This document shows positions 1-57,398 of a stretch of DNA of 64,000 bases, one piece after another; positions within the stretch are counted from its first letter, which is position 1; each line of letters opens with the position of its first letter. The notes under the pieces were generated by a model that made no database searches, was not told the origin of the DNA, and saw only the letters and a list, made by a program, of their open reading frames with translations. The translations under genes were made by a program, and so were the position numbers. Location of the stretch: NCBI GenBank assembly GCA_038881595.1, contig JAVZPM010000002.1, positions 59,254 to 123,253 on the forward strand. Reading direction: 5' to 3'. Source of the stretch: Candidatus Micrarchaeia archaeon (GTDB lineage Archaea; Micrarchaeota; Micrarchaeia; CABMEP01).

Positions 1-48
1 ATTACAAGTTGTATTGATAGGTTTGATGAGGGCAGGAAGGCCTATAAT

Positions 49-1101
49 ATGAGAAGGGATTGTATGATATTTAGTAATCTGCTAAAAAATTTAGAAGACA
101 GGGTACCAATGTATATTAAAAAAAAGATTCAAAAATTGCTTTTATATGCAGGGGAGGAAGAAGCGCCAGAATCTTGGTTTATAAAGAATTTAATAGTTTC
201 ATTGCTCTTTGGCCTTGCTTTTCTCTCTGCACCAACTATATTCTTTAGTTATCTATCTGAAGCAGGCTTGAATCTTACAGAGACAAGGTTTCTCATATTA
301 TCGTTTATAATTGGGTTGACTGCATTCATTGTTTACTGGATATTTGTTTTTTCAGCATTGTATCTTAAAATAGAATATAGAAAAAGAAGAACAAATGAAA
401 TATTACCTGATTTTCTTTCAAGCGTTGCAATGAATATAAGGGCAGGAATGGAACCGATTTCAGCACTCTATGTTTCTTTAAGGCCTGATTTTGATCCAAT
501 AACATCTGAAATGATGAAGATAAGGTCTTTAGCCATAGGATCAAAATCAATATTGGATCAGCTGTCTTATCTTACTTCTAAGATTGATTCTAATGCACTT
601 AGAAGAACAGTTGCAATTATAGATAGAGCATCAAGGTCTGGAGGAGAGTTAGGAAGACTGTTGCTATCTGTAGCTGATGATTTAAGAGATACAAATAGAG
701 TACAGAAAGAATTAGAGACGTCAACAAGAGGATACGTATATTTCATTTCATTCCTTACTATATTGGGAATTCCGTTGCTTCTTTCTGTTTCATCAGTTTT
801 CATTAGTGCAACTGCAAAACAAAGCCAACAGTTTACTGGGGGATTCGGAGGTTTAATAAGCGTGATTCCAATATCAAATGTAGTTACTTCTCAAACTTTA
901 GATCCATCAGCAGTTTTAACTATATTCATAATTCTTATATCTATAGGTGCTATCTCCGCTTCACTTATGTTGGGTGTATTATGGCATGGAGAGGTAAAGC
1001 AAGGGTTTAGATATTCAATAATATTATTACCCTTAGCGATTATTGCATTTTTAATATTTAGATCTGCCATGTTCTCTCTAATCGCCTCTTTTGGAATCTA
1101 A
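49..1101 (+). CDS. Type IV pilus/archaellum assembly membrane protein, TadC/FlaJ-like (T2SS-F domain); frame is open to window start, so possibly 5'-partial
   Basis: Polytopic membrane protein with a T2SS-F-like cytoplasmic segment (NIRAGMEPISALYVSL...LRRTVAIIDRASRSGGELGRLL); no in-frame stop between position 1 and the first ATG at 49; followed by a pilin gene. Confidence 0.6.
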   Translation: MRRDCMIFSNLLKNLEDRVPMYIKKKIQKLLLYAGEEEAPESWFIKNLIVSLLFGLAFLSAPTIFFSYLSEAGLNLTETRFLILSFIIGLTAFIVYWIFVFSALYLKIEYRKRRTNEILPDFLSSVAMNIRAGMEPISALYVSLRPDFDPITSEMMKIRSLAIGSKSILDQLSYLTSKIDSNALRRTVAIIDRASRSGGELGRLLLSVADDLRDTNRVQKELETSTRGYVYFISFLTILGIPLLLSVSSVFISATAKQSQQFTGGFGGLISVIPISNVVTSQTLDPSAVLTIFIILISIGAISASLMLGVLWHGEVKQGFRYSIILLPLAIIAFLIFRSAMFSLIASFGI

Positions 1102-1199
1102 AAAAAAGATTTTTATACCTTGCATTATAATCATAATAATCAGTAAACATATCGGTAAAAAATATCACGATATGTGGAAAATTTAATTGAGGTGGATAT

Positions 1200-1682
1200 A
1201 TGTTTGGAAAGAAAAAAGGTCAGGCAACAATTGAATATTTGGTTTTGCTTGCAGTGGCAATAATAATTGCACTGGTAATATTTGCATTTATGGGATGGAT
1301 ACCTGGCTTTGCAGGTAGCCTAAAGGAAAGACAAGTCAAACTCTACTGGTCTTCTCAATACCCAATACAAATAAGAGAATACAAGTTTTTCAATCAAAGT
1401 GGTGATGGTAATTTAACATTACAAGTACAAAATGTTGCTGACTATCAAATAAATATAACAGGTTTTTCAACTAGAAGCGCTTCAAACAATACACCAACCT
1501 ATATATTATTACCTGGTGAAACAAAAGTAATTTCATATATATTGGGTTCTTACAATACCATTTGTAGTAAAGTCGGAGATCCATACGAATTAACAGAAGT
1601 AAAAATAAACTATACGATTATTGGTGGAATTCAAAATATGGTAGAAACTGGTGATAGACCACTTGTAGGAACCTGCCAGTAA
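1200..1682 (+). CDS. Archaeal type IV pilin-like protein (class III signal peptide)
   Basis: N-terminus MFGKKKG|QATIEYLVLLAVAIIIALVIF: basic stretch, G-Q cleavage motif, E at +5, hydrophobic helix; sits immediately downstream of the TadC-like gene. Confidence 0.6.
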   Translation: MFGKKKGQATIEYLVLLAVAIIIALVIFAFMGWIPGFAGSLKERQVKLYWSSQYPIQIREYKFFNQSGDGNLTLQVQNVADYQINITGFSTRSASNNTPTYILLPGETKVISYILGSYNTICSKVGDPYELTEVKINYTIIGGIQNMVETGDRPLVGTCQ

Positions 1683-1868
1683 ATTAATTAGTTAGTTTTT
1701 TTATTTTTATTTTTTATTCTTTTATTAATTTTTCGTGTGCTCTGGTTTTGATCTTATTTTTGATTTTATTTAACTATTTAAATGTCCAGTCCACTATTGG
1801 ACTATTTACTTTTTTATAGCTAGCTAGTTATTTTAGTCATATTTTATTGTAATCTTATTTTTGTTTTT

Positions 1869-2996
1869 TCATTTCAAATATTCTTGCAATTCTTTTTTCA
1901 TATTCTCTATGTTTAGAATAAAATCAGCGTATCCTATCCATTCTCCATCTTCAAAACTATACATGTCACTGTCACTTATCACGATCATTAATTCATTTAT
2001 TCCATTTTTTAAAACAGGCAGTTTAATCTCTTTTCCTATCTCTCCCATATATGAACCATCTTGCGGTTCAATTAGTTCAGCCCCATTAAGAAGATTAATT
2101 TGAGAGCTATTATTTATTTTATATTGAGAAAAGGCAACTACACAATGTCCTAGCGAAGGTTCTTTTAGATAACAAACAACATAAGGATAAATATTTCCTG
2201 GTTTAAGCTCTTTTGCTTCTACATCTCTAATGAACCAGGTATTTCTATTGTTTATGAAATATCTATTACCGTTTTCTATTGGAATGTATGACTCAATAAT
2301 TATCTTTTTATTGCTGCATTTGCTTAATACATTATTCATTTCTGCCTTAAAAAACAGGGAATAATCTTCACAATCGCCCCCTTTATTTGCAATAAATTCT
2401 TCTAATGAACTTAGTTTATCTTTTTTATTATAAAGAGAGGTATCTGAAATATACTTCAGCCCATAAAATTCATCATTAACCAGATAAAAGCAAGCAGTTT
2501 TGATTCTGCATTCATCAAAAACTATTTTATAGCATTCTGTTTTAAGATCGCTTATTAGGCTTGTTTTTAGGCTATTATTCATCTTTTCAATATTTGAATT
2601 TTGAGAAAACCAGCTCATGGATTCATTTATTTTTTGTGAATATTCATCTAACTTTGCTAATAATGCATTTGCTTCATCTTTCAGTTGTTCATATCTGCTT
2701 CCTAAAAGAGTATAATTTTGAGTCAACATCTGATATTCATTTTGCAGCTTAGAGTAATTTTCTTCAGTTTCACTAAGCTTTTTTTTCAAATTTTCATTTT
2801 TTTCTAAAGCAGATTGAAGAGAAGTGATAAGTTGTTGCTTTTCTGAATTTAATTTCTCTATATTTGAAGTTGTATTTTCTACATATTTAAGATGCAGTTC
2901 TCTAAGGGAATTGTAACTGTTGAACTGATATATATTCAATAAAATAAGGAAGAGAACTGCGACTGCAAGAATTTTTTCATTTTCCATTTTATTCAA
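1869..2996 (-). CDS. Membrane-anchored coiled-coil protein with a putative transglutaminase-like (Cys-His-Asp) domain
   Basis: N-terminal TM anchor, about 100 aa heptad-like coiled coil, then GGDCEDYSLFF (Cys motif), LGHCVVAF (His) and a downstream Asp; pattern resembles the transglutaminase-like cysteine protease core. Confidence 0.35.
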   Translation of the reverse strand: MNKMENEKILAVAVLFLILLNIYQFNSYNSLRELHLKYVENTTSNIEKLNSEKQQLITSLQSALEKNENLKKKLSETEENYSKLQNEYQMLTQNYTLLGSRYEQLKDEANALLAKLDEYSQKINESMSWFSQNSNIEKMNNSLKTSLISDLKTECYKIVFDECRIKTACFYLVNDEFYGLKYISDTSLYNKKDKLSSLEEFIANKGGDCEDYSLFFKAEMNNVLSKCSNKKIIIESYIPIENGNRYFINNRNTWFIRDVEAKELKPGNIYPYVVCYLKEPSLGHCVVAFSQYKINNSSQINLLNGAELIEPQDGSYMGEIGKEIKLPVLKNGINELMIVISDSDMYSFEDGEWIGYADFILNIENMKKELQEYLK

Positions 2997-3010
2997 CTTT
3001 TAATGTTTAA

Positions 3011-3083
3011 TAGCCCCGACCGGATTCGAACCGGTGTCTCGGGCTCCAAAGGCCCGCATACTTGACCGCTATACGACGGGGCT
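3011..3083 (-). tRNA. tRNA-Gln (anticodon UUG), no intron
   Basis: Reverse complement folds as a 73-nt cloverleaf: acceptor AGCCCCG/CGGGGCT, anticodon stem CGGGC/GCCCG, loop CTTTGGA, T-loop TTCGAAT; CCA not encoded. Confidence 0.85.
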
Positions 3084-3128
3084 ATACAATTATTTATAGC
3101 TAATCAAAATTTTAAATACTTGCTTATT

Positions 3129-3656
3129 TCACCAAGGTACACTTTTGAGCTTTAGTTTATATGCAATTATATTTGACAAATAATGAATTATTAAAGTTAT
3201 TATTGCCAATATTGATAGTATTATCAAATCAAATTCCTTTGGTAAGTATGGAGAAGCAAATAAAAGTGCAAAAACATAGAAGCTAAGCTGATCAAGAATT
3301 GGGACAGATTTTCCACTCTTTACATTTATTCTTCTTTTTATAAAGCTACCAACCGCATCTCCAGTCATTGTACCGACTGAAAGCAGAAATGCAACCAGGA
3401 CGTGGGTTTCAAATGTAGAATACATATTAAGGATGCCTAAAAACCAGGTAATTATTCCAATAATCGTACCAGTTAAAATTCCAATAAAGAATCCAGTCCA
3501 TGTTTTTCCTTTCCCCAATATTCTCCTGCTGTCATAAAACTTTACTCCATAATCCATCGGTGTTTTGCTTGTTCCAGTTTTGAATAAAACTGGTGCTGCG
3601 TTCGCAAAATATGCAGGAAGTATGAATATAATTGCCTTAATAATTAAATCAATCAT
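3129..3656 (-). CDS. carS: CDP-archaeol synthase (CarS family, DUF46)
   Basis: Motifs PAYFANAAPVL, GKTWTGF and GDAVGSFIKRR in a polytopic membrane protein; start chosen at the internal Met (MIDLIIKA) to avoid overlap with the divergent sppA. Confidence 0.7.
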   Translation of the reverse strand: MIDLIIKAIIFILPAYFANAAPVLFKTGTSKTPMDYGVKFYDSRRILGKGKTWTGFFIGILTGTIIGIITWFLGILNMYSTFETHVLVAFLLSVGTMTGDAVGSFIKRRINVKSGKSVPILDQLSFYVFALLFASPYLPKEFDLIILSILAIITLIIHYLSNIIAYKLKLKSVPW

Positions 3657-3717
3657 TTTTTCACTTATTAGCATTAATAGCATAAATATTTTTAAATATA
3701 CCAAACAATCTATTAAT

Positions 3718-4641
3718 ATGCGATCAACACAACACATAATAAAGCAAGATGGTGCAACCACTATCAGTGCTGGAACAATAATTCTTTATATAATTGCAAT
3801 ATTAGTTATTGCAATGTTCCTTCTCAATTTCTTATCAGTTGTAGGAGTTGGAGGGTGCGTTGGGGTAATAGAGGTAAATGGAGAGATTTCCACTTCTAAA
3901 GGATATGGATTAGTTTCTTCATCTGAAATTATTAGTTTGCTTAAGGAAGTAGAATCCAGGCCAGATATAAGAAGTGTTGTTTTAGTAATGAATACTCCTG
4001 GCGGTTCAGCAGTTGCTTCTAATGAAATTTATTTATATCTAAAAGGCATGAAGAAGCCAACTGTTACATATATAAGTGAAATGGCAACTTCCGGAGGATA
4101 TTTCATATCTCTTGGAACAGATTATATCTATTCAAATCCCTATGCAGTTACAGGGAGCATAGGTGCAAGAACTGGGTGGGTCATTGACATGTCAAGATGG
4201 CTAAATAATACAGGAATAAATATGAGTGTGATAAAAAGCGGAGAGATGAAAGATTCCGGTGATATTTATAGACCTATGACAGAAGAAGAGAAAAAAGTAT
4301 TTCAAGAAATAATTGATGAAATAGGAGGTTCTTTCCTCAATCTTACAATATCAGAAAGATCTAAGAATGCAAGATTTAGCCAGAATTCCATATCTTTAAT
4401 ATCTGACGCAAGGATATTTACAGGAAAACAAGCATTTGAAATTGGATTGGTTGATGAACTTGGAACAAGGCAAGATGCAATAAATAAGGCTGCAGCAATG
4501 GGAGGATTAGACCAGAGCCCGAGCATCTGCGTTCTTGAGACAAAGAAAGATTTCTTAAGTACTATGTTTAATGAGATGGGAAGAGGTATAGGTGAAACTT
4601 TAAGCAATAAGTTATCATTTAATAGTCTTCGTATACAATAA
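3718..4641 (+). CDS. sppA: Signal peptide peptidase SppA (S49 family)
   Basis: VLVMNTPGGSAVASNEIY...SEMATSGGYFISLGTDYIYSNPYAVTGSIGA is typical of SppA/ClpP-fold S49 peptidases; TM anchor after Met at 3718; TTTAAATATA box about 25 bp upstream. Confidence 0.75.
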   Translation: MRSTQHIIKQDGATTISAGTIILYIIAILVIAMFLLNFLSVVGVGGCVGVIEVNGEISTSKGYGLVSSSEIISLLKEVESRPDIRSVVLVMNTPGGSAVASNEIYLYLKGMKKPTVTYISEMATSGGYFISLGTDYIYSNPYAVTGSIGARTGWVIDMSRWLNNTGINMSVIKSGEMKDSGDIYRPMTEEEKKVFQEIIDEIGGSFLNLTISERSKNARFSQNSISLISDARIFTGKQAFEIGLVDELGTRQDAINKAAAMGGLDQSPSICVLETKKDFLSTMFNEMGRGIGETLSNKLSFNSLRIQ

Positions 4642-4695
4642 ATATCAATAAATATAAATAGCCTAGGATAAAAGGCAATCTAACCAAGTGAGAAA

Positions 4696-5268
4696 ATGGG
4701 AAAAAATAAGAAAAATGCATTTATATTCACAACAGATGCATTTCTTGCTCTCCCACTAGTTGTTTTGGCAGTGTCTACATTTATTGCATTTTCAGTTACT
4801 CTTCGAGATAATATTACTGTACAAGAATATGCCTACATAATTGCAAAAGATGCAATAAATGTTTTAATCGATTCAAACCCACAGCATATCGGGGGATCTG
4901 GAGATAATTCATTTGCTTATATAATTGCGCAGAATATTGTTGATTCAGATTTAAATAGCGCAAACAGTACTGCATCTGTTATCGATTCCATTGTTCCTTC
5001 TAATGCAGCGTATATACTTGAATATAAATCCGCTTCTGATAACCAATGGAAAGAGATAAGGATTTTAGACAGAGGGAACAAGATAGCGCAAAACAAATAT
5101 TCAATTCAGGTCTCAAGTACAAGGTTAATCGCAGATATCTCGCAACCAAGACTTAATCCAAGTGGCGACTGTCCAAGTGAAATAGTATGTTCTTTCCCAT
5201 CAATATCACAGTATACACCAGGTTCAACAGTTGGTCCACTACTACTCAGGATAAGGGTATTCATATAA
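4696..5268 (+). CDS. Hypothetical membrane-anchored extracellular protein (possible pilus-associated)
   Basis: Basic N-terminus followed by a hydrophobic helix (KKNAFIFTTDAFLALPLVVLAV); first gene of a co-directional cluster of pilin-like genes. Confidence 0.3.
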   Translation: MGKNKKNAFIFTTDAFLALPLVVLAVSTFIAFSVTLRDNITVQEYAYIIAKDAINVLIDSNPQHIGGSGDNSFAYIIAQNIVDSDLNSANSTASVIDSIVPSNAAYILEYKSASDNQWKEIRILDRGNKIAQNKYSIQVSSTRLIADISQPRLNPSGDCPSEIVCSFPSISQYTPGSTVGPLLLRIRVFI

Positions 5269-5296
5269 TAAATATATTCAAAGGATAAGTGTTTAT

Positions 5297-6715
5297 ATGT
5301 TAGGAAAAGAAAATTTCAAAACAAAAAAATCAAAAATGCAATATAGTAAGCAGAGAAAGGGATTTGTATTTACAATCCTAACCTTAGTTATAATAGTATT
5401 CATGATTATAGAACTTAACATATATTTCAGGACATACGAATTGAAACTTGCTAATGAGCCAACGAAATTAAGGCTTCAGGTAATACAGGATTTCATAAGA
5501 GCATATTCTCCAAACTATTTCAATGAAACTGCATATTCTTTCATTTATTCCTCTTTATATGAACTTAACAAAGATTCAATCCAATATCCACCATCCCAAT
5601 CAAGTTTAGCTGAATTAATTTGGAATATATCTTATTCAGGAAAGAGAACAGACAGCCGTACAGTACAGCTAATAGATCAGACTAAAACACTATCATCTTA
5701 TGATTCAAATCTATCTGCTCTTGCAAAGTCAATGAATATTGATTTGGTTGTTAATTATAAGGATTTCAACATCACACAAATAGATTATTGGACTGTACAG
5801 TACAATTTTACAATTGCAGTTTCAATAAATGATAAAGCATCCAGTACAAGTGTTAAGTTCACTTCTCCTATTTCATTAAACATCTCAATAATTGGATTTG
5901 AAGATCCTTGGCTCGCAAGAATGGGATTCAGAAATAAGAGTATAATACCTGTAGATCAGATTCAGATTGATCAGATAAGGCCTTCCCTTTTAATGAACGG
6001 GACAAGAGGAAGAGGATGGTTTTATGGCGAACCAATAATAGTGACAAGCTGTCCTTCTGCTGATTTTGAATTCAGTGATTCTTTCTTAGAGAATAAGACC
6101 AAGATAATGGTTACAGACAACACAGGAGTTGCTAGGGAATGCGGTCAGCTTTTTGGAGCAGTTATAGTAGTATCTGATCAAAACGCAAACACAAATCCAT
6201 TTGTTGGATTAGATGTCCCATTATTCATAAACTCTTCAGCAAAAATCTCAGATATTCCAAGGCAACCTATCTTAATAGTTTCAGATAACGATACAGTAAT
6301 AACAGATGACAGTTCAGGTCATTATCATTACATGCTTGACATAAACAATCTAAGAAGTGGAATAGAATGCGGAAGATATTTTGTAAGGCCATATAATAAT
6401 TATGGCTATCTAAGAAGGCTCACAAACAACGTTACTGGAGTTTTTGATGAATTTGGTATAGAAACCATTCTGTCAGGTACAACACAAGCAATCCCAACTT
6501 CGAGATCCTCTTATAGTTTTGTTGACAGAGAATACAACTCATCCATCCCCGGTAATCTAATTAAGGGTCTTCCAGGTTGCAGTAATCAATTGATATGCAA
6601 TTATACAAAGGATTATCATTCTTCTTCAATACCTTATCCGACACGATTAAGTACGGATGCAGCTAGATATTATTTAGGTTTATTTAACTCCTCAATGATT
6701 ATAAAAAGAGATTAG
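5297..6715 (+). CDS. Large pilin-like or pilus-associated secreted protein
   Basis: N-terminus RKG|FVFTILTLVIIVFMII resembles a class III signal peptide; large Ser/Thr/Asn-rich ectodomain; co-directional with the following pilin-like genes. Confidence 0.35.
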   Translation: MLGKENFKTKKSKMQYSKQRKGFVFTILTLVIIVFMIIELNIYFRTYELKLANEPTKLRLQVIQDFIRAYSPNYFNETAYSFIYSSLYELNKDSIQYPPSQSSLAELIWNISYSGKRTDSRTVQLIDQTKTLSSYDSNLSALAKSMNIDLVVNYKDFNITQIDYWTVQYNFTIAVSINDKASSTSVKFTSPISLNISIIGFEDPWLARMGFRNKSIIPVDQIQIDQIRPSLLMNGTRGRGWFYGEPIIVTSCPSADFEFSDSFLENKTKIMVTDNTGVARECGQLFGAVIVVSDQNANTNPFVGLDVPLFINSSAKISDIPRQPILIVSDNDTVITDDSSGHYHYMLDINNLRSGIECGRYFVRPYNNYGYLRRLTNNVTGVFDEFGIETILSGTTQAIPTSRSSYSFVDREYNSSIPGNLIKGLPGCSNQLICNYTKDYHSSSIPYPTRLSTDAARYYLGLFNSSMIIKRD

Positions 6716-6716
6716 G

Positions 6717-7169
6717 ATGATAACAATGGGAAATGAATTGTTGTTTAAAGGTCAAATAATGCTTGAAACTCTAATAATAGTCTCATTCCTCTTGCTTATC
6801 CTAATTCCTACTGTAATTTACATCTTGTCTGTTCTTTCCACCGAGTCATGGAAGACAGATGCAAATCAAGCATATTCAACATTGACAAAAATCGTTTCGA
6901 TATCTAACAAGCTAGCAATGCTAGGCAATGGTTCATCTTCTTATGAATCTATATTTCTTCCATCAAGCACTCAACGAATGAATGTATCAAGTGATGGAAG
7001 AGAAATCTTCATTACTTTAAAAGGACCTAAATCAGATGATTTGCAAGTTGTTGCTTTAAGTCCAGTCATTATAAGATTGAATTCAACTCAAGACTGGACC
7101 AATATTAAAGGAGCACAAACACTTATGTTTGTTGTTCAAGATGGAGAGGTAATAATATCAAAAACATAA
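6717..7169 (+). CDS. Archaeal type IV pilin-like protein
   Basis: N-terminus ...FKG|QIMLETLIIVSFLLLIL (G-Q, E at +5, hydrophobic helix). Confidence 0.5.
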   Translation: MITMGNELLFKGQIMLETLIIVSFLLLILIPTVIYILSVLSTESWKTDANQAYSTLTKIVSISNKLAMLGNGSSSYESIFLPSSTQRMNVSSDGREIFITLKGPKSDDLQVVALSPVIIRLNSTQDWTNIKGAQTLMFVVQDGEVIISKT

Positions 7170-7242
7170 TATATTCTAATAGAAAGATTAGTAATTTGAA
7201 TATCAGAATTAGCAATGTTTATTTTATTAATGGTGTGGTTTC

Positions 7243-7695
7243 ATGAAGAAAATTAATAATCTCGTAAAAAAAGGACAAGTTGCATTTGAATTCCTTCTCA
7301 TTTATAGCTTTTTCATATTTGTATTTCTTTCTTCGCTTTATATAATCTCTGGACAGGCAGTTCAACAACAAAGGTATGCAGAAGGATTGTATGCGAGAGA
7401 ATTTATTGTAACAATTGCAGATGAGATAAACGCAGCAGCTATGATTGAAGGCTACGAAAAGAATTTAAATATTCCAACTACAATGAGCAGCGTCCCATAT
7501 CAACTATATGTATATAAAGGTATGATTGGATTAAATTACAGCTCAATAACGAATATAGATCTACTATATCCTTTAGCAACAGATAAAGTATTTGTAAATG
7601 GAGTAGATACATCTAAGTACATTGGATATATTAATACAGCAAAAGGAAAGTTAAAAATAATAAGCTCACAGGGCATGGTGATCTTAAATGACTAA
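7243..7695 (+). CDS. Archaeal type IV pilin-like protein
   Basis: N-terminus MKKINNLVKKG|QVAFEFLLIYSFFIFVFL (class III signal peptide pattern). Confidence 0.5.
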   Translation: MKKINNLVKKGQVAFEFLLIYSFFIFVFLSSLYIISGQAVQQQRYAEGLYAREFIVTIADEINAAAMIEGYEKNLNIPTTMSSVPYQLYVYKGMIGLNYSSITNIDLLYPLATDKVFVNGVDTSKYIGYINTAKGKLKIISSQGMVILND

Positions 7696-8200
7696 AATTT
7701 TTAATTCAAATGAAAACAAAATAAAATACAGAACTAAAAAAGGCCAGTTTTTTTCGTATGATGCGATAGTAGCTGGAATACTTTTCATTCTTCTTTTGAC
7801 AATACTTTATAATTATTGGAATTCATTAAGAACAACAGTTTCAATAAGGATTGATGATTCATCAAGAATTGCATTAAGTGTTTCGAACATGCTTCTGACA
7901 CCTGGTTATCCTTTAAATTGGAATTCATCTAACTTTAATCAGATAGGATTAACAGAAAACTATAATACAATAAAACTTAATGAAGCAAAGGTTTCAAATC
8001 TCACTCTTATTTCTTATATAAATTATGAATTGATGAAAGAAAGGCTGGGGGTAGGACCTTATGAGATATATATTACAATCGGAGATGAAAGAATAGGCAA
8101 TGCTCCTTTAAATCCGACATCCAAGGTCACAATAACAAGGCCAGCCATATATAAGGATAGATTAGAAAATTTATCCGTAACTATTTGGAGTACAAAATGA
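7688..8200 (+). CDS. Archaeal type IV pilin-like protein
   Basis: N-terminus ...YRTKKG|QFFSYDAIVAGILFILLLTIL; overlaps the preceding gene by 8 bp, consistent with an operon. Confidence 0.5.
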   Translation: MTKIFNSNENKIKYRTKKGQFFSYDAIVAGILFILLLTILYNYWNSLRTTVSIRIDDSSRIALSVSNMLLTPGYPLNWNSSNFNQIGLTENYNTIKLNEAKVSNLTLISYINYELMKERLGVGPYEIYITIGDERIGNAPLNPTSKVTITRPAIYKDRLENLSVTIWSTK

Positions 8201-8226: not shown

Positions 8227-8733
8227 TTACTTATCTTTTTCTTTATTTAAAAAGAATTTCATTCTGTCTATTAATCCTATATTTTCATTTTTTCTAGATT
8301 CTGCTTCGATTTCATCTTTGACATTTGTTTTTTGACTCGTTTCTTCTATTTTTACTTTATCTTCTTCGTTCTTTCTTTTATATTCAGAGTAAAACTTTTC
8401 AACTGTTCTCCTGTTGACATAATCGTGCTGCCTGAATCCTCCTCCGAATGATTTAGGTATGTGCAGCAACTCATGAATCAATACTTTCGTTCTTTCTTCT
8501 TCATTCATTTTGTCGAATCTCTCACTAATTACCTCTATAACATAAAAAGGATCTGTATTCATCCCAAGTTGCATCACTTTCGGTAGTCCATGACATCTAG
8601 CAATTACTCTTCTTGAGTTAGTTCCATAGCTTCTAAAACAAGCAATCCTCTCTATGTTTACATAGTTGATATTTAGTTTTTCAACTATGTCTTTTATCTT
8701 TTCTTCCAAGTCCCTTGCTCTTTCGTATTTCAT
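8227..8733 (-). CDS. Predicted Zn-dependent metallopeptidase (HExxH motif, SprT/DUF45-like)
   Basis: HELLHIPKSFGGGFRQH motif within a small soluble protein; exact family not resolved. Confidence 0.4.
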   Translation of the reverse strand: MKYERARDLEEKIKDIVEKLNINYVNIERIACFRSYGTNSRRVIARCHGLPKVMQLGMNTDPFYVIEVISERFDKMNEEERTKVLIHELLHIPKSFGGGFRQHDYVNRRTVEKFYSEYKRKNEEDKVKIEETSQKTNVKDEIEAESRKNENIGLIDRMKFFLNKEKDK

Positions 8734-24845: not shown

Positions 24846-25214
24846 ATGAACGATATAGGAGAGCAGCTTTCTTTAGTACTTAAAGAAATTAAAAGTTCAG
24901 GAGATGTCGAGGCTTCTGTTATAATGAGAAGAGATGGAATAATTATATCTTCAGATTTTCAAGATATTTCTTCAAAAAATCTTTCAGTTATGTCCTCACT
25001 TATTTCAGTTGCTGAGTTATCTTCTTTAGAATTAAAACGTGGCGTTTTTCAAGAGATGATGATTGAAAGTGAAAATGGTAAGATTATTTTGATCAATGCA
25101 GGAAAAAATGCAGTTTTACTTTCATTTGTTAAAAAAGAAGGAAATATAGGTTTTATTTTAATTACTTTAGAAAGTGCAGCAAAAAAAATACAAAGTATAA
25201 TTGATAAAATTTAG
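24846..25214 (+). CDS. Roadblock/LC7 (MglB-like) domain protein
   Basis: About 120 aa with a Roadblock-like pattern (ASVIMRRDGIIISS ... KIILINAGKNAVLLSFV). Confidence 0.55.
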   Translation: MNDIGEQLSLVLKEIKSSGDVEASVIMRRDGIIISSDFQDISSKNLSVMSSLISVAELSSLELKRGVFQEMMIESENGKIILINAGKNAVLLSFVKKEGNIGFILITLESAAKKIQSIIDKI

Positions 25215-25230
25215 ATATTATATTTGATAG

Positions 25231-25977
25231 GTGGATCGAATGGAAAATACAGTAAAGAAAAAGTTATTCTTTACCTCTCTTCCTAGGGTTCCTTCAGGTA
25301 TATTTGGACTTGATGACATGATGGAGGGAGGTTTCGAAAAAAACAGTTTAAATCTCATATGTGGAGAATCGGGTTCAGGAAAAACTTTGTTTGCAATGCA
25401 ATTCATTTTCTTCGGTGCACAAAAATATAACGACAATTCATTATTCATATCATTTGAAGAGACAAAGGATGAATTAAAAAGGAGAATGGCGAGATTCGGA
25501 TTTGATCTTACAGCACAAGAGGCGAGTGGAAAACTTTTGATTTATTCTTATTCTCTAAGAGAAGTAAACAAATTTATTGAAGATCTTCCTAATATAGAAA
25601 GTTTGATAAAAAAGAATAAAATATCTAGAATAGCATTTGATTCTCTTACAACCTACTCTGCTTTCTTCGATAATCCTTCAAGAAGAACACTTGAGATAAT
25701 TTCATTGATCGATAAATTCAAAAAACTAGATTGCACAATTGTTATCACTTCTGATCTTAAAATACCTTCTAAGACATTAGAAGCAGAGGAAGGATTGATC
25801 AATGAATATTTAGTTGATTCGGTAATTTCACTTTATTCTGTGAGAAGGGGAGATATTAGAGATTTTGGACTTGAGATAATAAAAATGAGGGGTACAAATC
25901 ATAGCAGAAAAATTGTTCCAATGAGAATAGTACCTACGGGGATGATAGTATATCCAGATATGCCATTTATTAAGTAA
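25231..25977 (+). CDS. KaiC-like RecA-superfamily ATPase
   Basis: VPSGIFGLDDMMEGGF...ICGESGSGKTLFAMQF (Walker A) plus a downstream hydrophobic-Asp Walker B; single KaiC-type domain. Confidence 0.7.
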   Translation: MDRMENTVKKKLFFTSLPRVPSGIFGLDDMMEGGFEKNSLNLICGESGSGKTLFAMQFIFFGAQKYNDNSLFISFEETKDELKRRMARFGFDLTAQEASGKLLIYSYSLREVNKFIEDLPNIESLIKKNKISRIAFDSLTTYSAFFDNPSRRTLEIISLIDKFKKLDCTIVITSDLKIPSKTLEAEEGLINEYLVDSVISLYSVRRGDIRDFGLEIIKMRGTNHSRKIVPMRIVPTGMIVYPDMPFIK

Positions 25978-29950: not shown

Positions 29951-30370
29951 TTAGTCTCTAAGCATTATAATTTGTGCGCCCAACCTTTTTAAATATTGCT
30001 TGAGTTTTTTATCGTACGTTACTATAGATAGTTTTTGTTTCTTTGCTATTTTTATGAACCATCTATCTAAAGGTGGGTCTGCTTTCTCTACGTTTATTTT
30101 CTTGTCAGTTTCCCATTTTTTGATTATTTTTAGTGCTATAGTTGCATTTCTTTTTTCAGACAAACTACTCTTCTTTGAGTTGATAATTTTTTCTAATTCA
30201 TCATATATTCCAGAAGGAATTACTACAATTGATTTGATCCCTCTAATTTTTTTATGGAGTGTTTCTAAAATGTCAATCTTTTTTTGTATAGAATAAATAA
30301 TCGCATTGGTATCAAACGTCAATATTTGTTTTTCTTCTTTCCTTTCTATCTCTTTATTTTCAAATTTCAT
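29951..30370 (-). CDS. PIN-domain protein (putative ribonuclease)
   Basis: ILTFDTNAII (N-terminal acidic motif) and a later acidic residue in VTYD; about 140 aa. Confidence 0.45.
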   Translation of the reverse strand: MKFENKEIERKEEKQILTFDTNAIIYSIQKKIDILETLHKKIRGIKSIVVIPSGIYDELEKIINSKKSSLSEKRNATIALKIIKKWETDKKINVEKADPPLDRWFIKIAKKQKLSIVTYDKKLKQYLKRLGAQIIMLRD

Positions 30371-39510: not shown

Positions 39511-40605
39511 TTACCACATAACTTCTTCTATCATTTCATATGCCTTGTGTTCCTGTTTCTGTGGTTCAAGGTTTCCAAGCAATGATGTGGAGGTAACTCC
39601 GGTCATGATTGCAGTGACAACAACCTTGTCTCCAAGTTCTGGCATGAGTCTTGCTCCCCAGATGACATTTGCATTGTTGTCAAATGCTGCAGTTATTCCT
39701 TCACCAATCTTGGTTGCCTCACCCAATGTAAGATTTGGACCACCTGCTATGTGGATAAGCGCTCCCTTTGCACCTTCATAGCTCACATCAAGCAATGGGT
39801 GTTCTAATGTGCTCTTTATTGCATCCTCAACCTTGTTTGTTCCCTTTCCTTCTCCAACAGAGAGCATTGCAACTCCACCGTTGCCCATGATTGCTCTTAT
39901 GTCGGCAAAGTCAATGTTGATAAGGGATGGGGTCATTATAGTATCAGATATTCCCTTTATTGCTCTTGCAAGTATTTCATCTGCTACATTGAATGCCTCG
40001 TTCATAGGTAAGTTTGGCACGTACTGAACTAATCTGTTGTTGTCAATTACAACTACAGTGTCACATGTTTTTCTTAATTCTTCCAATCCCCATCTTGCCT
40101 TTTCTGTTCTTGCTCTCTCAAGAGAAAATGGGTATGTAACCATACCAACTACTATTGCACCCTCTCTCTTTGCAACCTCTGCAACAACTGGTGCAGCACC
40201 TGTACCTGTACCTCCTCCCATACCTGCTGTAATGAATACTAAATCTGCTCCACTTAATGCCTCTGCAAGCTTGTCTTTTGATGCCTCAGCTGCCTTTCTT
40301 GCAACCTCCGGATATCCTCCAGCACCAAGACCTCTTGTTATGGACTGACCAATTAAGAGTCTCTTGTGAGCCTCTGTTATCTTCAGGTGGTTGACATCAG
40401 TGTTAATTGCTATCGTGTCTGCGGTTTTTATTCCAGATCTCATTATTCTAGTGATGCTGTTGCATCCTCCTCCACCTACTCCTACTACAGTAATTCTGAT
40501 CTTGTCTGATCCAAGGTAATCCTTCTCCGGTGCCTTGGTCGCCTTAACTGTGGTTCCAGATGTAAACGAACTTAGGAAACTTTCCATTTCAACACCCTGC
40601 CTCAA
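39511..40605 (-). CDS. ftsZ: Cell division GTPase FtsZ (paralog A)
   Basis: Tubulin/FtsZ signature [24 protein letters not shown]. Confidence 0.95.
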
Positions 40606-40668
40606 ATTAAATATTATTTTCCACTAAAAAATTAAGTGGAATGGCTGCAAAGCAGCCACTTAACAAAT

Positions 40669-41730
40669 TTAACCAATTATTTCAATGTCACCATATATTG
40701 GTGATTCTACTTTTTGCTCTTCAAGTGGTACTCCAACAACACTTGCACCCTTTACTCCAGTTACGATTGCAACTATTTCTATCTTGCCATCATATCCTGG
40801 AATGAGTCTTGCACCCCACTTGACGCTTGCCGTTGAATCCATTCTTTCAGTTATTATTTCTCCTGCCTTGATTGCATCTCCTAATGTCAGGTCGTTTCCA
40901 CCAGAGATGTGGATCAAAGCACCTTTTGCTCCTTCGAAGTCAACATCAAGCAATCTGTTCTTTAGAACTCCTTCTGCAGCTGCCTGAACCTTGTTTGTTC
41001 CTCTTCCTTCACCTACCGCAATGAAACCAACATCACCTTGAGACATAATTGCTCTTACATCTGCAAAGTCAATGTTGATTAATGAAGGTTGTGTTATCGT
41101 CCAGACAAGTCCACCAATTGCTCTTGCAAGTATCTCATCTGCAACTCCAAAAGCCTCATTCATTGGGAGATTTGGAACCAATTGAACCAGTCTGTTGTTG
41201 TCAATTATAATAACACTGTCTGCATGTTTTCTAAGCATCTGAATTCCTTCGTCTGCTTTGCTTCTTCTTGCCTTTTCAAGTGCGAATGGGTAGGTAACCA
41301 TAGCAACTACTATTGCACCTTGTTCTTTTGCAATTTCTGCAACAACAGGAGCACTTCCTGTACCTGTACCTCCTCCCATACCTGCACAGATAAAAACTAA
41401 TTGTGCATCTTTTAGTGCTCTTTCGATTAAAGGCTTGTCAATTTCTGCAGCCTTTCTCCCTACATCAACATATCCTCCAGCACCAAGACCTCTTGTTATA
41501 GATTTACCTATAAGAATCTTTTGAATCCTTTCATCTAATGTCAATAAGTGCTGATTATCTGTATTAATTGCAATCAGATCAGCACCCTTAACACCATATC
41601 TAAGAAGTCTCTGAAGGGTGTTGTTTCCTCCACCACCGCAGCCCACGACTGCGATCTTAATTCTTTCAACTGGACCAAGATTTGACTCAGCCTCAGTGTG
41701 TCCTGTAACAGATTTGATTAAGCTTTCCAT
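40669..41730 (-). CDS. ftsZ: Cell division GTPase FtsZ (paralog B)
   Basis: [25 protein letters not shown]; second FtsZ directly upstream of the first. Confidence 0.95.
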
Positions 41731-56807: not shown

Positions 56808-57398
56808 TTAGTAATCGACCCCCCATCTTGCAAGAATTCCTTTGTCAAATGGGTGCTTTATTTTTTTAACTTCACTGACTAAATCGGCGATTTCGATTAT
56901 TTTTTCATTAGGCTTAAACCCAGTGAGTATAACTTCTGTATACTTATTTTTTTTCTTTAGAATATCAAGTATTTCATCGTATGTGAAATGCCCAAATGCA
57001 GCTGCAGTATTTATCTCGTCTAAAATAACTAAATCATATTCCCCTGAAGAAAGAAGTTTTTTGCTTAGTTTTAAACCTTTCTTAGATTTTTCAATTATGT
57101 GTTTATCATAATCAAAATAAATCTTAGTAATTTTCGCTTTTCCATCTCTTACAAGTTTATCATATTCTTTTCCAGCAGAAGGCCCCAATTCAAATATTTT
57201 TATTTTGTGTTTTTTAAGATAGTTAAATTCTCCGCTTATTCCTCCATCTTTAAGAAATTGAACTACCGCAACTTTTAATCCATGCCCAGCTGCTCTGATC
57301 GCGGTTCCAATTGCCGCGCTTGTCTTTCCTCTTCCATCACCATAAAATACCTGGATTAATCCAATTTCTAATTTTTTCTTTTTATTATTCTTTTCCAT
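56808..57398 (-). CDS. cobA: Cob(I)yrinic acid a,c-diamide / corrinoid adenosyltransferase (CobA/BtuR)
   Basis: GLIQVFYGDGRGKTSAAIG P-loop and the length are typical of CobA/BtuR. Confidence 0.85.
   Translation of the reverse strand: MEKNNKKKKLEIGLIQVFYGDGRGKTSAAIGTAIRAAGHGLKVAVVQFLKDGGISGEFNYLKKHKIKIFELGPSAGKEYDKLVRDGKAKITKIYFDYDKHIIEKSKKGLKLSKKLLSSGEYDLVILDEINTAAAFGHFTYDEILDILKKKNKYTEVILTGFKPNEKIIEIADLVSEVKKIKHPFDKGILARWGVDY

Follow-up and report, generated by a model that had tools for sequence, protein, structure and literature searches.

Which surface structure do the six pilin-like genes at the start of this archaeal DNA serve, and where is its motor encoded? The DNA in question, hereafter called the window, is a stretch of 64 kb from a hot-spring metagenome-assembled genome (MAG) of Micrarchaeota (DPANN). 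Among the archaeal genes encoded in it are CarS, split RNA polymerase subunits, elongation factor EF-2 and two FtsZ proteins, and named homologs of its proteins all come from Micrarchaeota or Micrarchaeia MAGs, with hot-spring bins being the closest. The region forms part of a type IV filament system of this Micrarchaeota archaeon, a system of a known kind with an already annotated motor, and is split into two gene groups. The first group would consist of a secretion ATPase, two single-domain T2SSF platform proteins and a 160-amino-acid (aa) pilin with its own promoter-like and terminator-like signals, and the second of sppA followed by five pilin-like genes, here named A to E. We consider it fairly probable that these genes make a type IV pilus of the archaeal kind, in which a single major pilin is accompanied by a set of five minor pilins, with B capping. 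A sequence-only reading of the window had proposed a type IV pilus-like locus with up to six tandem pilin-like genes. The open reading frames (ORFs) it described are all present where it had placed them, and the pilus-like interpretation is supported by an ATPase gene upstream, by N-termini that fit class III signal peptides and stay conserved within each family, and by predicted structures with a helix and a head. There are indeed six such genes, although they do not form one run, as the first lies approximately 3 kb from the array of five.

The array of five, which we call the cassette, is encoded on the forward strand. Gene A (4696..5268; 190 aa) starts with the motif KKNA/FIFTTDAF, where the slash marks the predicted cleavage site, with Asp at +6, and its product carries two invariant Cys residues. 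Gene B (5297..6715; 472 aa) encodes the largest pilin-like protein of the set, a candidate tip or cap subunit with the motif RKG/FVFTIL and no early acidic residue. It is followed by C (6717..7169, with the start at 6726 in the record's annotation; 150 aa; FKG/QIMLE) and D (7243..7695; 150 aa; KKG/QVAFE), both with Glu at +5, and by E (7688..8200; 170 aa; KKG/QFFSYDA), with Asp at +6. The spacing is operon-like, with 54 nucleotides (nt) between the co-directional sppA and A, 28 nt between A and B, 1 nt between B and C, 73 nt between C and D, and an 8-nt overlap of D and E, and a T-tract lies 3' of E. The sequence-only reading had credited at least three proteins of the array with prepilin-like N-termini of the K-G/Q...E(+5) type. 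All five have a prepilin-like N-terminus, whereas Glu at +5 is found in two only, Asp at +6 in two, and neither in the 472-aa protein. To see how unusual such N-termini are, we took every ORF of 70 aa or more from both strands of the 64 kb and scanned it for a class III-type signal, defined as [KR]-x(0,1)-[GAS] with a hydrophobic 20-mer after it, in the first 45 residues. All six pilin-like genes were returned, along with just three spurious ORFs, namely, an over-extended SppA start and two unsupported short ORFs (30000-30296 and 56842-57111). Since the scan picks exactly these six beside three spurious ORFs, the six pilin-like genes are not a product of chance.

The cassette is conserved well beyond this genome. 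A genome scan with the N-terminal pattern of B gave 37 loci, nearly all titled Micrarchaeota or Micrarchaeia, with four titled "archaeon" only and one "Candidatus ainarchaeum." When all the ORFs of 38 non-redundant Micrarchaeota loci were clustered by BLASTP, A to E resolved into five distinct families, with the order A-B-C-D-E kept across the loci. Family B was found in 38 of the 38 loci, A in 35, C and D in 33 each, E in 32 and SppA in 30, and the commonest other flanking gene was found in 19. Directly upstream of the cassette, SppA on the same strand and CarS on the opposite strand are present in 31 of the 35 loci with enough upstream sequence, and this divergent pair (window positions 3129-4641; L002 to L040 in our numbering of the loci) persists even when the identity of the cassette proteins has dropped to about 20%. 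In the distant loci, no Q...E(+5) class III-type gene lies within 10 kb besides C and D of the cassette, the exception being a 441-aa ORF in L043. As for B, the search found 17 word-indexed homologs, and its profile, run against 1.84 billion cluster representatives, retrieved 1140 of them at E<=1e-3, of which 641 reached E<=1e-10. Of the distant B matches that were looked up and carried a name, 10 of 10 were Micrarchaeota. We found no paper describing the five-gene cassette.

Within each family, the start of the mature protein follows its own rule. Family A exhibits the motif [AG]/F[IV]F[ST]xD, with Asp at +6 in 33 of 33 aligned members, and family E exhibits KG/Q[FY]FS[FY]DA, with Asp at +6 in 30 of 30. 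Glu at +5 is found throughout family C (G/Q..LE; 24 of 24 members) and family D (G/Q.A.E; 29 of 29 members). Family B, with the motif KG/F[VIL]FT, has no Asp or Glu before +17 in any of its 36 members. The motif residues are partly circular, since family members were gathered by motif patterns; nevertheless, the BLASTP clustering recovers nearly the same sets independently, and none of the gathering patterns included the lack of acidic residues in B. All six pilin-like proteins, including the 160-aa pilin, have a short basic leader followed by a hydrophobic stretch of at least 20 residues, with Gly or Ala at -1 and Gln or Phe at +1 in every aligned member. In distant lineages the leader is reduced to MKG or MRA, and the cleavage-type site is kept. 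Residues +1 to +40 are more conserved than the remainder in all six families. Together, these features suggest that A to E may be cleaved as prepilins.

Next, we compared the families with one another and with known pilins. C and D are full-length paralogs (hhalign probability of 95%; E value of 2e-8), whereas A and E share the N-terminal helix only (probability of 59%). Five copies of one pilin were therefore rejected as a description of the cassette, since full-length paralogy is confined to C and D. The N-terminal helix of D aligns with that of the major pilin family (probability of 90%). Pfam and NCBIfam were run on all ten ORFs of the region, and Pfam was also run on every member of families C and D. 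The class III signal model PF04021 gave 13.9 bits on D, under a cut-off of 23.7, and did not match A, B, C or E. No homology of A to E to the Gsp or Pil minor pilins was detectable by Pfam, NCBIfam, PDB profile or fold searches. B contains approximately 3 N-glycosylation sequons per 100 aa, as does the major pilin, compared with 0.1 to 0.8 in cytoplasmic proteins of the window. The length of B varies among the loci. The homolog in L038 (9986-12724) has 912 aa and those in L041 and L043 approximately 640 aa, compared with 435 to 530 aa elsewhere, and this variation suggests domain insertions in the putative tip subunit.

To examine the predicted architecture, AlphaFold models were built for B, from a 17-sequence alignment (predicted local distance difference test score, pLDDT, of 72.5), and for E, with database homologs as the alignment (pLDDT of 83.8). 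The sequence-only reading had put forward the 472-aa protein B for structure prediction. Its model shows a helix at residues 21 to 69, starting just after the predicted cut between G22 and F23, followed by an alpha/beta head, with residues 402 to 472 at low confidence. In the model of E, a helix at residues 21 to 69 begins just after the predicted cut between G19 and Q20 and is followed by two short helices and four C-terminal beta-strands. Thus, both modelled proteins combine a 49-residue N-terminal helix with a globular head, the "lollipop" architecture of pilins. Fold searches with the two models gave no significant match to a pilin or an archaellin, and E had no significant fold match in the PDB; because of this, we limit the claim to a pilin-like architecture and do not extend it to membership of the pilin fold.

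The first of the six pilin-like genes (1200..1682, forward strand) encodes the 160-aa candidate major pilin, which starts with MFGKKKG/QATIEY and has Glu at +5. The sequence-only reading had recognised the class III signal KKG/QATIEY here. PF04021 gave 22.6 bits on this protein, below the gathering score of 23.7, and matched 30 of 30 aligned family members at E<=0.01, with a best E value of 3.5e-05. Some of the homologs carry the name "UPF0333 family," others that of a "class III signal peptide-containing protein." It was also the sole protein to match PF07790 (Pilin_N/PilA-type), with a below-threshold E value of 0.029. This family shows almost no variation over the first ~50 residues of the mature protein, but it has a hypervariable middle and an invariant Cys pair; the mean pairwise identity is 0.78 at +1 to +40, compared with 0.43 elsewhere. 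Sequons occur at 3.1 per 100 aa. A sigma-70 promoter scan found 55 promoters against 49.7 expected; it is uninformative for an archaeon, and the intergenic sequences were read directly instead. The gene is preceded by a TATA-like box and a GAGGTG ribosome-binding site and followed by a long T-tract. The near-invariant N-terminus, variable middle, Cys pair, sequons and promoter- and terminator-like signals fit an abundant, surface-exposed subunit, and the 160-aa protein is probably the main filament subunit. L002, a distant relative whose B is 31% identical, has a tandem pair of paralogs of the 160-aa pilin (6428-7502) just upstream of CarS, SppA and the cassette, with no ATPase nearby. This arrangement is a hint of a tendency for the cassette and the genes of shaft pilins to travel together.

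The motor genes lie mostly outside the window, on the source contig (L001; GCA_038871195.1), which shares 11,682 identical nt with the window and reaches 5,494 nt further upstream. There is no secretion ATPase inside the 64 kb, as the sequence-only reading had noted. Its suggestion that an ATPase could lie upstream was correct, since a T2SSE secretion ATPase of 640 aa (L001 2633-4555; PF00437, 3.2e-31) is encoded directly upstream of the window. Its best solved relatives are the Archaeoglobus fulgidus GspE (2oap; 8.5e-71), FlaI (1.6e-48) and CpaF (1.5e-36), and by sequence it is a hexameric ATPase of the GspE/FlaI family. Between it and the 160-aa pilin gene are two platform genes. The first, T2SSF1 (L001 4578-5546, forward strand; 322 aa; PF00482, 3.3e-11), is TadB/TadC-like and named "type II secretion system F family protein" in GenBank, and window positions 1 to 52 are its 3' end. 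The second, T2SSF2 (49..1101, forward strand, with the start at 64 in the record's annotation; 350 aa), has its T2SSF domain at residues 122 to 246 (PF00482, 3.9e-09), in agreement with the platform gene first proposed for this ORF. It had been thought possibly truncated at its 5' end by the window edge. This was rejected, since the open frame upstream belongs to another gene in a different frame: positions 1 to 52 are the tail of T2SSF1, whose stop overlaps the ATG of T2SSF2 at 49 (ATGA, 49-52), and T2SSF2 is therefore complete. Each of the two genes encodes a single T2SSF domain, and the proteins are colinear and just 20% identical; no PDB chain matched T2SSF2 by sequence. Two tadC genes are typical of archaeal clade 1 and of many clade 2 loci (PMC4858521), and two platform genes also occur in "System 1" and some DPANN 4A loci (bioRxiv 10.64898/2026.04.22.720090).

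Divergently from the 640-aa ATPase gene, on the reverse strand, the source contig encodes a paralog of 761 aa (L001 294-2579, approximately 2.9 to 5.2 kb upstream of window position 1). It has no Pfam match. Its best solved match is CpaF (5.8e-06), followed by A. fulgidus GspE (8.6e-05), and BLASTP aligns it with the 640-aa ATPase over 270 residues (2e-09). The protein keeps a Walker A motif (GIKGCGKTS) and an FHA[DE]S box, while other motifs are altered, and it is more conserved between genomes (78 to 83%) than the canonical ATPase (65 to 73%). Possible roles are those of a second motor or of a regulatory pseudo-ATPase.

A prepilin peptidase, which the sequence-only reading thought might also lie upstream, was found neither in the 64 kb, where that reading had likewise seen none, nor in the 5.5 kb upstream or the flanks of related loci, by motif scan, reading of ORF translations of the window and Pfam on selected candidates. 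In the cultured Micrarchaeon "Ca. Mancarchaeum acidiphilum" Mia14, a single FlaK-like peptidase is encoded away from the pilus loci (PMC5498576).

Based on these observations, we propose the following model. A to E would be inserted in the membrane, and their leaders would be cut after the K/R-G/A motif by a peptidase encoded elsewhere. The hexameric ATPase and the two platform proteins would act as the motor that lifts processed subunits out of the membrane, and the 160-aa pilin would polymerise into the shaft. It is common for archaeal ATPase/TadC modules to work with pilin sets whose genes lie in trans (PMC4858521). A to E would assemble with this pilin as a low-abundance initiation or tip complex, priming assembly and staying at the tip, which we infer by analogy because their organisation resembles that of the bacterial core minor pilin sets. 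The paralogs C and D, with Glu at +5, and A and E, with Asp at +6, may stack under B, which would be the cap and possibly an adhesin. Korotkov and Hol are said to have described, in 2008, a GspK that lacks Glu5. Bacterial filaments are primed by a core of four minor pilins, of which GspK, the largest, has an inserted domain and caps the tip (PMC7248040). The cassette is comparable to the GspH-I-J-K and FimU-PilV-W-X sets (PMC7248040; PDB 3ci0), in which four to five pilin-like genes are co-transcribed and differ from the major pilin, in that it has a fixed order, short gaps or overlaps, and one member, B, that is much larger than the others and has no early acidic residue.

Several results weigh against this model. 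The cassette is tied more tightly to SppA and CarS than to the motor or shaft genes, and a tip complex leaves the SppA linkage unexplained. An ATPase lies within 10 kb of the cassette in just 5 of 35 loci, and most Micrarchaeota loci have neither an ATPase nor the 160-aa pilin within that distance, so that the ATPase group and the cassette are linked only by position, and in a single clade. The A protein of this genome has Asn at -2 and Lys at -3, although Lys or Arg is found at -2 in 28 of 33 orthologs. Pfam and NCBIfam gave nothing on A to E beyond stray weak matches to DUF7311 and DUF7266, and the profiles of families E and C found no matches among PDB sequences. A regular expression for A24 peptidases (GxGD[..]K) returned one irrelevant match only from the six frames of the window and 43 loci, a weak negative. 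It is conceivable that A to E build a short filament or pseudopilus of their own, similar to those of type II secretion, ComG or the bindosome, which would be independent of the 160-aa pilin and borrow the ATPase and platform in trans, and could serve secretion through the surface layer (S-layer), DNA uptake or envelope organisation. ComGC to ComGG and GspG to GspK form a similar run of five pilin-like genes, and the cassette stands by itself in 30 of 35 loci, where neither an ATPase nor a major pilin lies within 10 kb of it. The five genes in a row thus match the number of GspG to GspK (PMC7248040), archaeal pilin sets are exchanged between motors (PMC4858521), and DNA exchange through type IV pili has been speculated for Mia14 (Golyshina et al., PMC5498576). 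However, none of A to E resembles an abundant major subunit, as there is no separate strong-promoter gene and no hypervariable head of the kind seen in the 160-aa family. Moreover, major-pilin genes adjoin the block in the window's clade and in L002, and no secretin-like, ComEC-like or substrate gene is linked to it. We therefore regard a filament made by the cassette alone as unlikely.

Alternatively, A to E could be bitopic membrane proteins, anchored by an N-terminal helix that is not cleaved, that form a membrane or envelope complex working with the co-transcribed SppA, for instance, in envelope biogenesis or quality control. The adjacent, co-directional position of SppA in 31 of 35 loci, across lineages with B only ~20% identical, speaks for this explanation, and CarS, another membrane-biogenesis gene, is equally linked; in addition, A to E have neither a Pfam pilin model nor a pilin fold match, and no peptidase was found nearby. 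Nevertheless, five separate families share an invariant [KR]-[GA] followed by Gln or Phe before the helix, which is the signature of a prepilin peptidase substrate and not that of a generic signal anchor, and the site is kept in distant lineages even as the leader shrinks to MKG or MRA. Two of the families also share the Q...E(+5) of the PF04021-positive pilin, with whose helix that of D aligns, and helices of 49 residues far exceed the need of a membrane anchor. An uncleaved envelope complex thus appears quite improbable. That the array is a chance run of ORFs with hydrophobic N-termini, or of mis-called genes in an AT-rich genome, has practically no likelihood and is refuted by the conservation. 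At a GC content of ~32%, spurious ORFs are common, but the order and motifs are conserved in 32 to 38 independent Micrarchaeota loci, B alone has 641 cluster representatives at E<=1e-10, and both AlphaFold models are mostly confident.

The proposed pilus, with A to E as minor pilins, shares features with several described systems. The closest by phylum is that of Mia14, another member of the Micrarchaeota, which has type IV pilus loci at MIA14_0170-0177 and MIA14_0252-0260 (Golyshina et al. 2017, PMC5498576). Both organisms encode a secretion ATPase and TadC, with two TadC proteins in one Mia14 locus, and the other Mia14 locus holds a series of seven genes whose annotation includes class III signal peptides (Supplementary Table 2, PMC5498576), which we liken to A to E by description only. 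The pilin genes of Mia14 come directly after those of the ATPase and TadC, whereas the cassette described here follows SppA and CarS and in most genomes is distant from any ATPase; the genome scan with the B pattern did not return Mia14. Micrarchaeota have otherwise been recorded with "type IV pili (FlaIJK)" (PMC8561730). Outside the phylum, the Epd pilus of Methanococcus maripaludis, or System 1 (clade 1), similarly has an ATPase, two platform genes and Gln at +1 with a DUF361/PF04021-type signal (PMC4858521; bioRxiv 10.64898/2026.04.22.720090). Several minor pilins are needed there besides the major one, and System 1 has been reported in some DPANN (PMC4858521; bioRxiv 10.64898/2026.04.22.720090). 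In contrast, the major pilin here has 160 aa with a globular part of ~110 aa, while the Epd pilin is headless with ~70 aa; the locus has no EppA or other peptidase gene, and two cassette proteins have Phe instead of Gln at +1. Membership of clade 1 is doubtful because the 640-aa ATPase is nearer to A. fulgidus GspE (8.5e-71) than to CpaF (1.5e-36), a proxy that considers solved structures only.

With the PilA1-6/PilB3-PilC3 system of Haloferax volcanii (clade 2, PMC4858521), the locus shares motor and pilin genes that lie apart and would act in trans, and many clade 2 loci have two tadC genes. The closest solved relative of the 640-aa ATPase, A. fulgidus GspE, is an archaeal secretion ATPase, which is a likeness to clade 2 that does not imply a clade assignment for 2oap. 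Conversely, no Pilin_N/PilA-type Pfam match above threshold is found here, and the clade 2 minor pilin arCOG02911 has been described as all-beta (PMC4858521), unlike the alpha/beta model of B. The Tad/Flp pilus (CpaF, TadB and TadC) is comparable in its platform, split into two single-domain T2SSF proteins, and in its related ATPases, CpaF ranking third among the solved matches of the 640-aa ATPase and first among those of the 761-aa paralog. However, Flp pilins are headless, with ~50 aa, and are cut by TadV/CpaA, whereas the pilins here have heads, and counterparts of RcpA, TadZ or TadD are absent from this locus.

In the GenBank record, both ATPases, both T2SSF proteins and SppA carry names, while the 160-aa pilin, A to E and a coiled-coil protein encoded next to the pilin are deposited as "hypothetical protein." The present analysis adds the gene model at the window edge, the upstream ATPase with its divergent paralog, and the recognition of all six pilin-like genes, and it describes the cassette as a conserved, unannotated, SppA-linked module across the sampled Micrarchaeota. 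The coupling to SppA, which is as conserved as the cassette itself, is a small new observation on how archaeal pilin genes are organised. Micrarchaeota, which include ARMAN and its relatives, are ultra-small DPANN archaea that depend on host archaea, and the cassette genes are good candidates for host contact; a host-interaction role for pili has been suggested by the authors of the Mia14 study (PMC5498576). The gene order conserved in 38 loci spanning the phylum, the motifs of each family and the cap hallmark in B make these proteins concrete candidates for labelling, proteomics and cryo-electron tomography in the co-cultures that already exist. The system may serve adhesion or cell-cell contact, as the sequence-only reading had suggested, or DNA uptake or secretion. 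A more speculative reading, which we hold to be rather unlikely, is that sppA-A-B-C-D-E is a vertically inherited signature module of the Micrarchaeota for a dedicated device of the cell surface, be it a tip complex or a pseudopilus that stands alone, in which a B protein of 450 to 900 aa contacts the host archaeon and the co-transcribed S49 protease has a specific role, such as maturing or turning over the subunits. If so, the module would be a candidate source of the structures through which ARMAN cells are reported to connect with Thermoplasmatales cells (cited in PMC5498576). Should the cassette be merely a minor-pilin set of the routine kind, what is gained is a useful annotation only.

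The ~3 kb between the 160-aa pilin and the cassette hold four genes, namely, that of the coiled-coil protein, a tRNA-Gln, CarS and SppA. SppA, a signal peptide peptidase of family S49 (3718..4641, forward strand; 307 aa), was identified by TIGR00706 (163.5 bits; cut-off of 155.45) and PF01343 (1.3e-33). Its translation contains ATSGGY, which we take to be the motif typical of the S49 nucleophile. We found no paper linking SppA to pilins. CarS, a CDP-archaeol synthase (3129..3656, reverse strand; PF01864, 1.9e-51; NF003114, 194 bits), is divergent from sppA and belongs to the conserved block, probably with a function unrelated to the pilus. The tRNA-Gln (UUG) found by ARAGORN (3010..3084, reverse strand) lies outside the system and marks the break between the two pilus gene groups.

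The coiled-coil protein (1869..2996, reverse strand; 375 aa) is anchored in the membrane at its N-terminus; it also has a long coiled coil, and its C-terminal domain contains the motif GGDCEDYS. Its gene lies tail to tail with that of the major pilin and is confined to the close clade. Over its whole length it gave coiled-coil Pfam matches only, and Pfam found nothing in its C-terminal 234 aa; marginal matches to LapG were obtained with NCBIfam (E value of 0.058) and PDB entry 4fgo (E value of 0.66). GGDCEDYS and these marginal matches weakly suggest that the protein is possibly a surface accessory of the transglutaminase-like cysteine protease type. Transglutaminase-like surface peptidases have been linked to archaeal type IV pilus loci (Makarova 2016, PMC4858521).

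Further genes were observed around the cassette and elsewhere in the window. In 22 distant loci (L004 and L016 to L040; e.g., L016 8915-9232), an extra small ORF of ~100 to 145 aa, membrane anchored and cysteine rich, lies between sppA and A; it is absent from the window's clade. Approximately 17 kb from the cassette, a Roadblock/LC7 protein (PF03259, 4.4e-12) is followed by a KaiC-family ATPase (PF06745, 9.7e-49) at 24846-25977 on the forward strand. Both families are frequent companions or regulators of archaeal type IV pilus loci (Makarova 2016, PMC4858521). Reading of the translations also showed two tandem FtsZ-like genes, of 364 and 353 aa, at 39511-41730 on the reverse strand. Directly after the cassette and convergent with E, the reverse strand encodes a 168-aa protein of the "putative phage metallopeptidase" family (8227-8733; PF18894, 4.6e-26), which is kept after the cassette in closer relatives (L007 to L011) and has homologs further downstream in L009 and L013.

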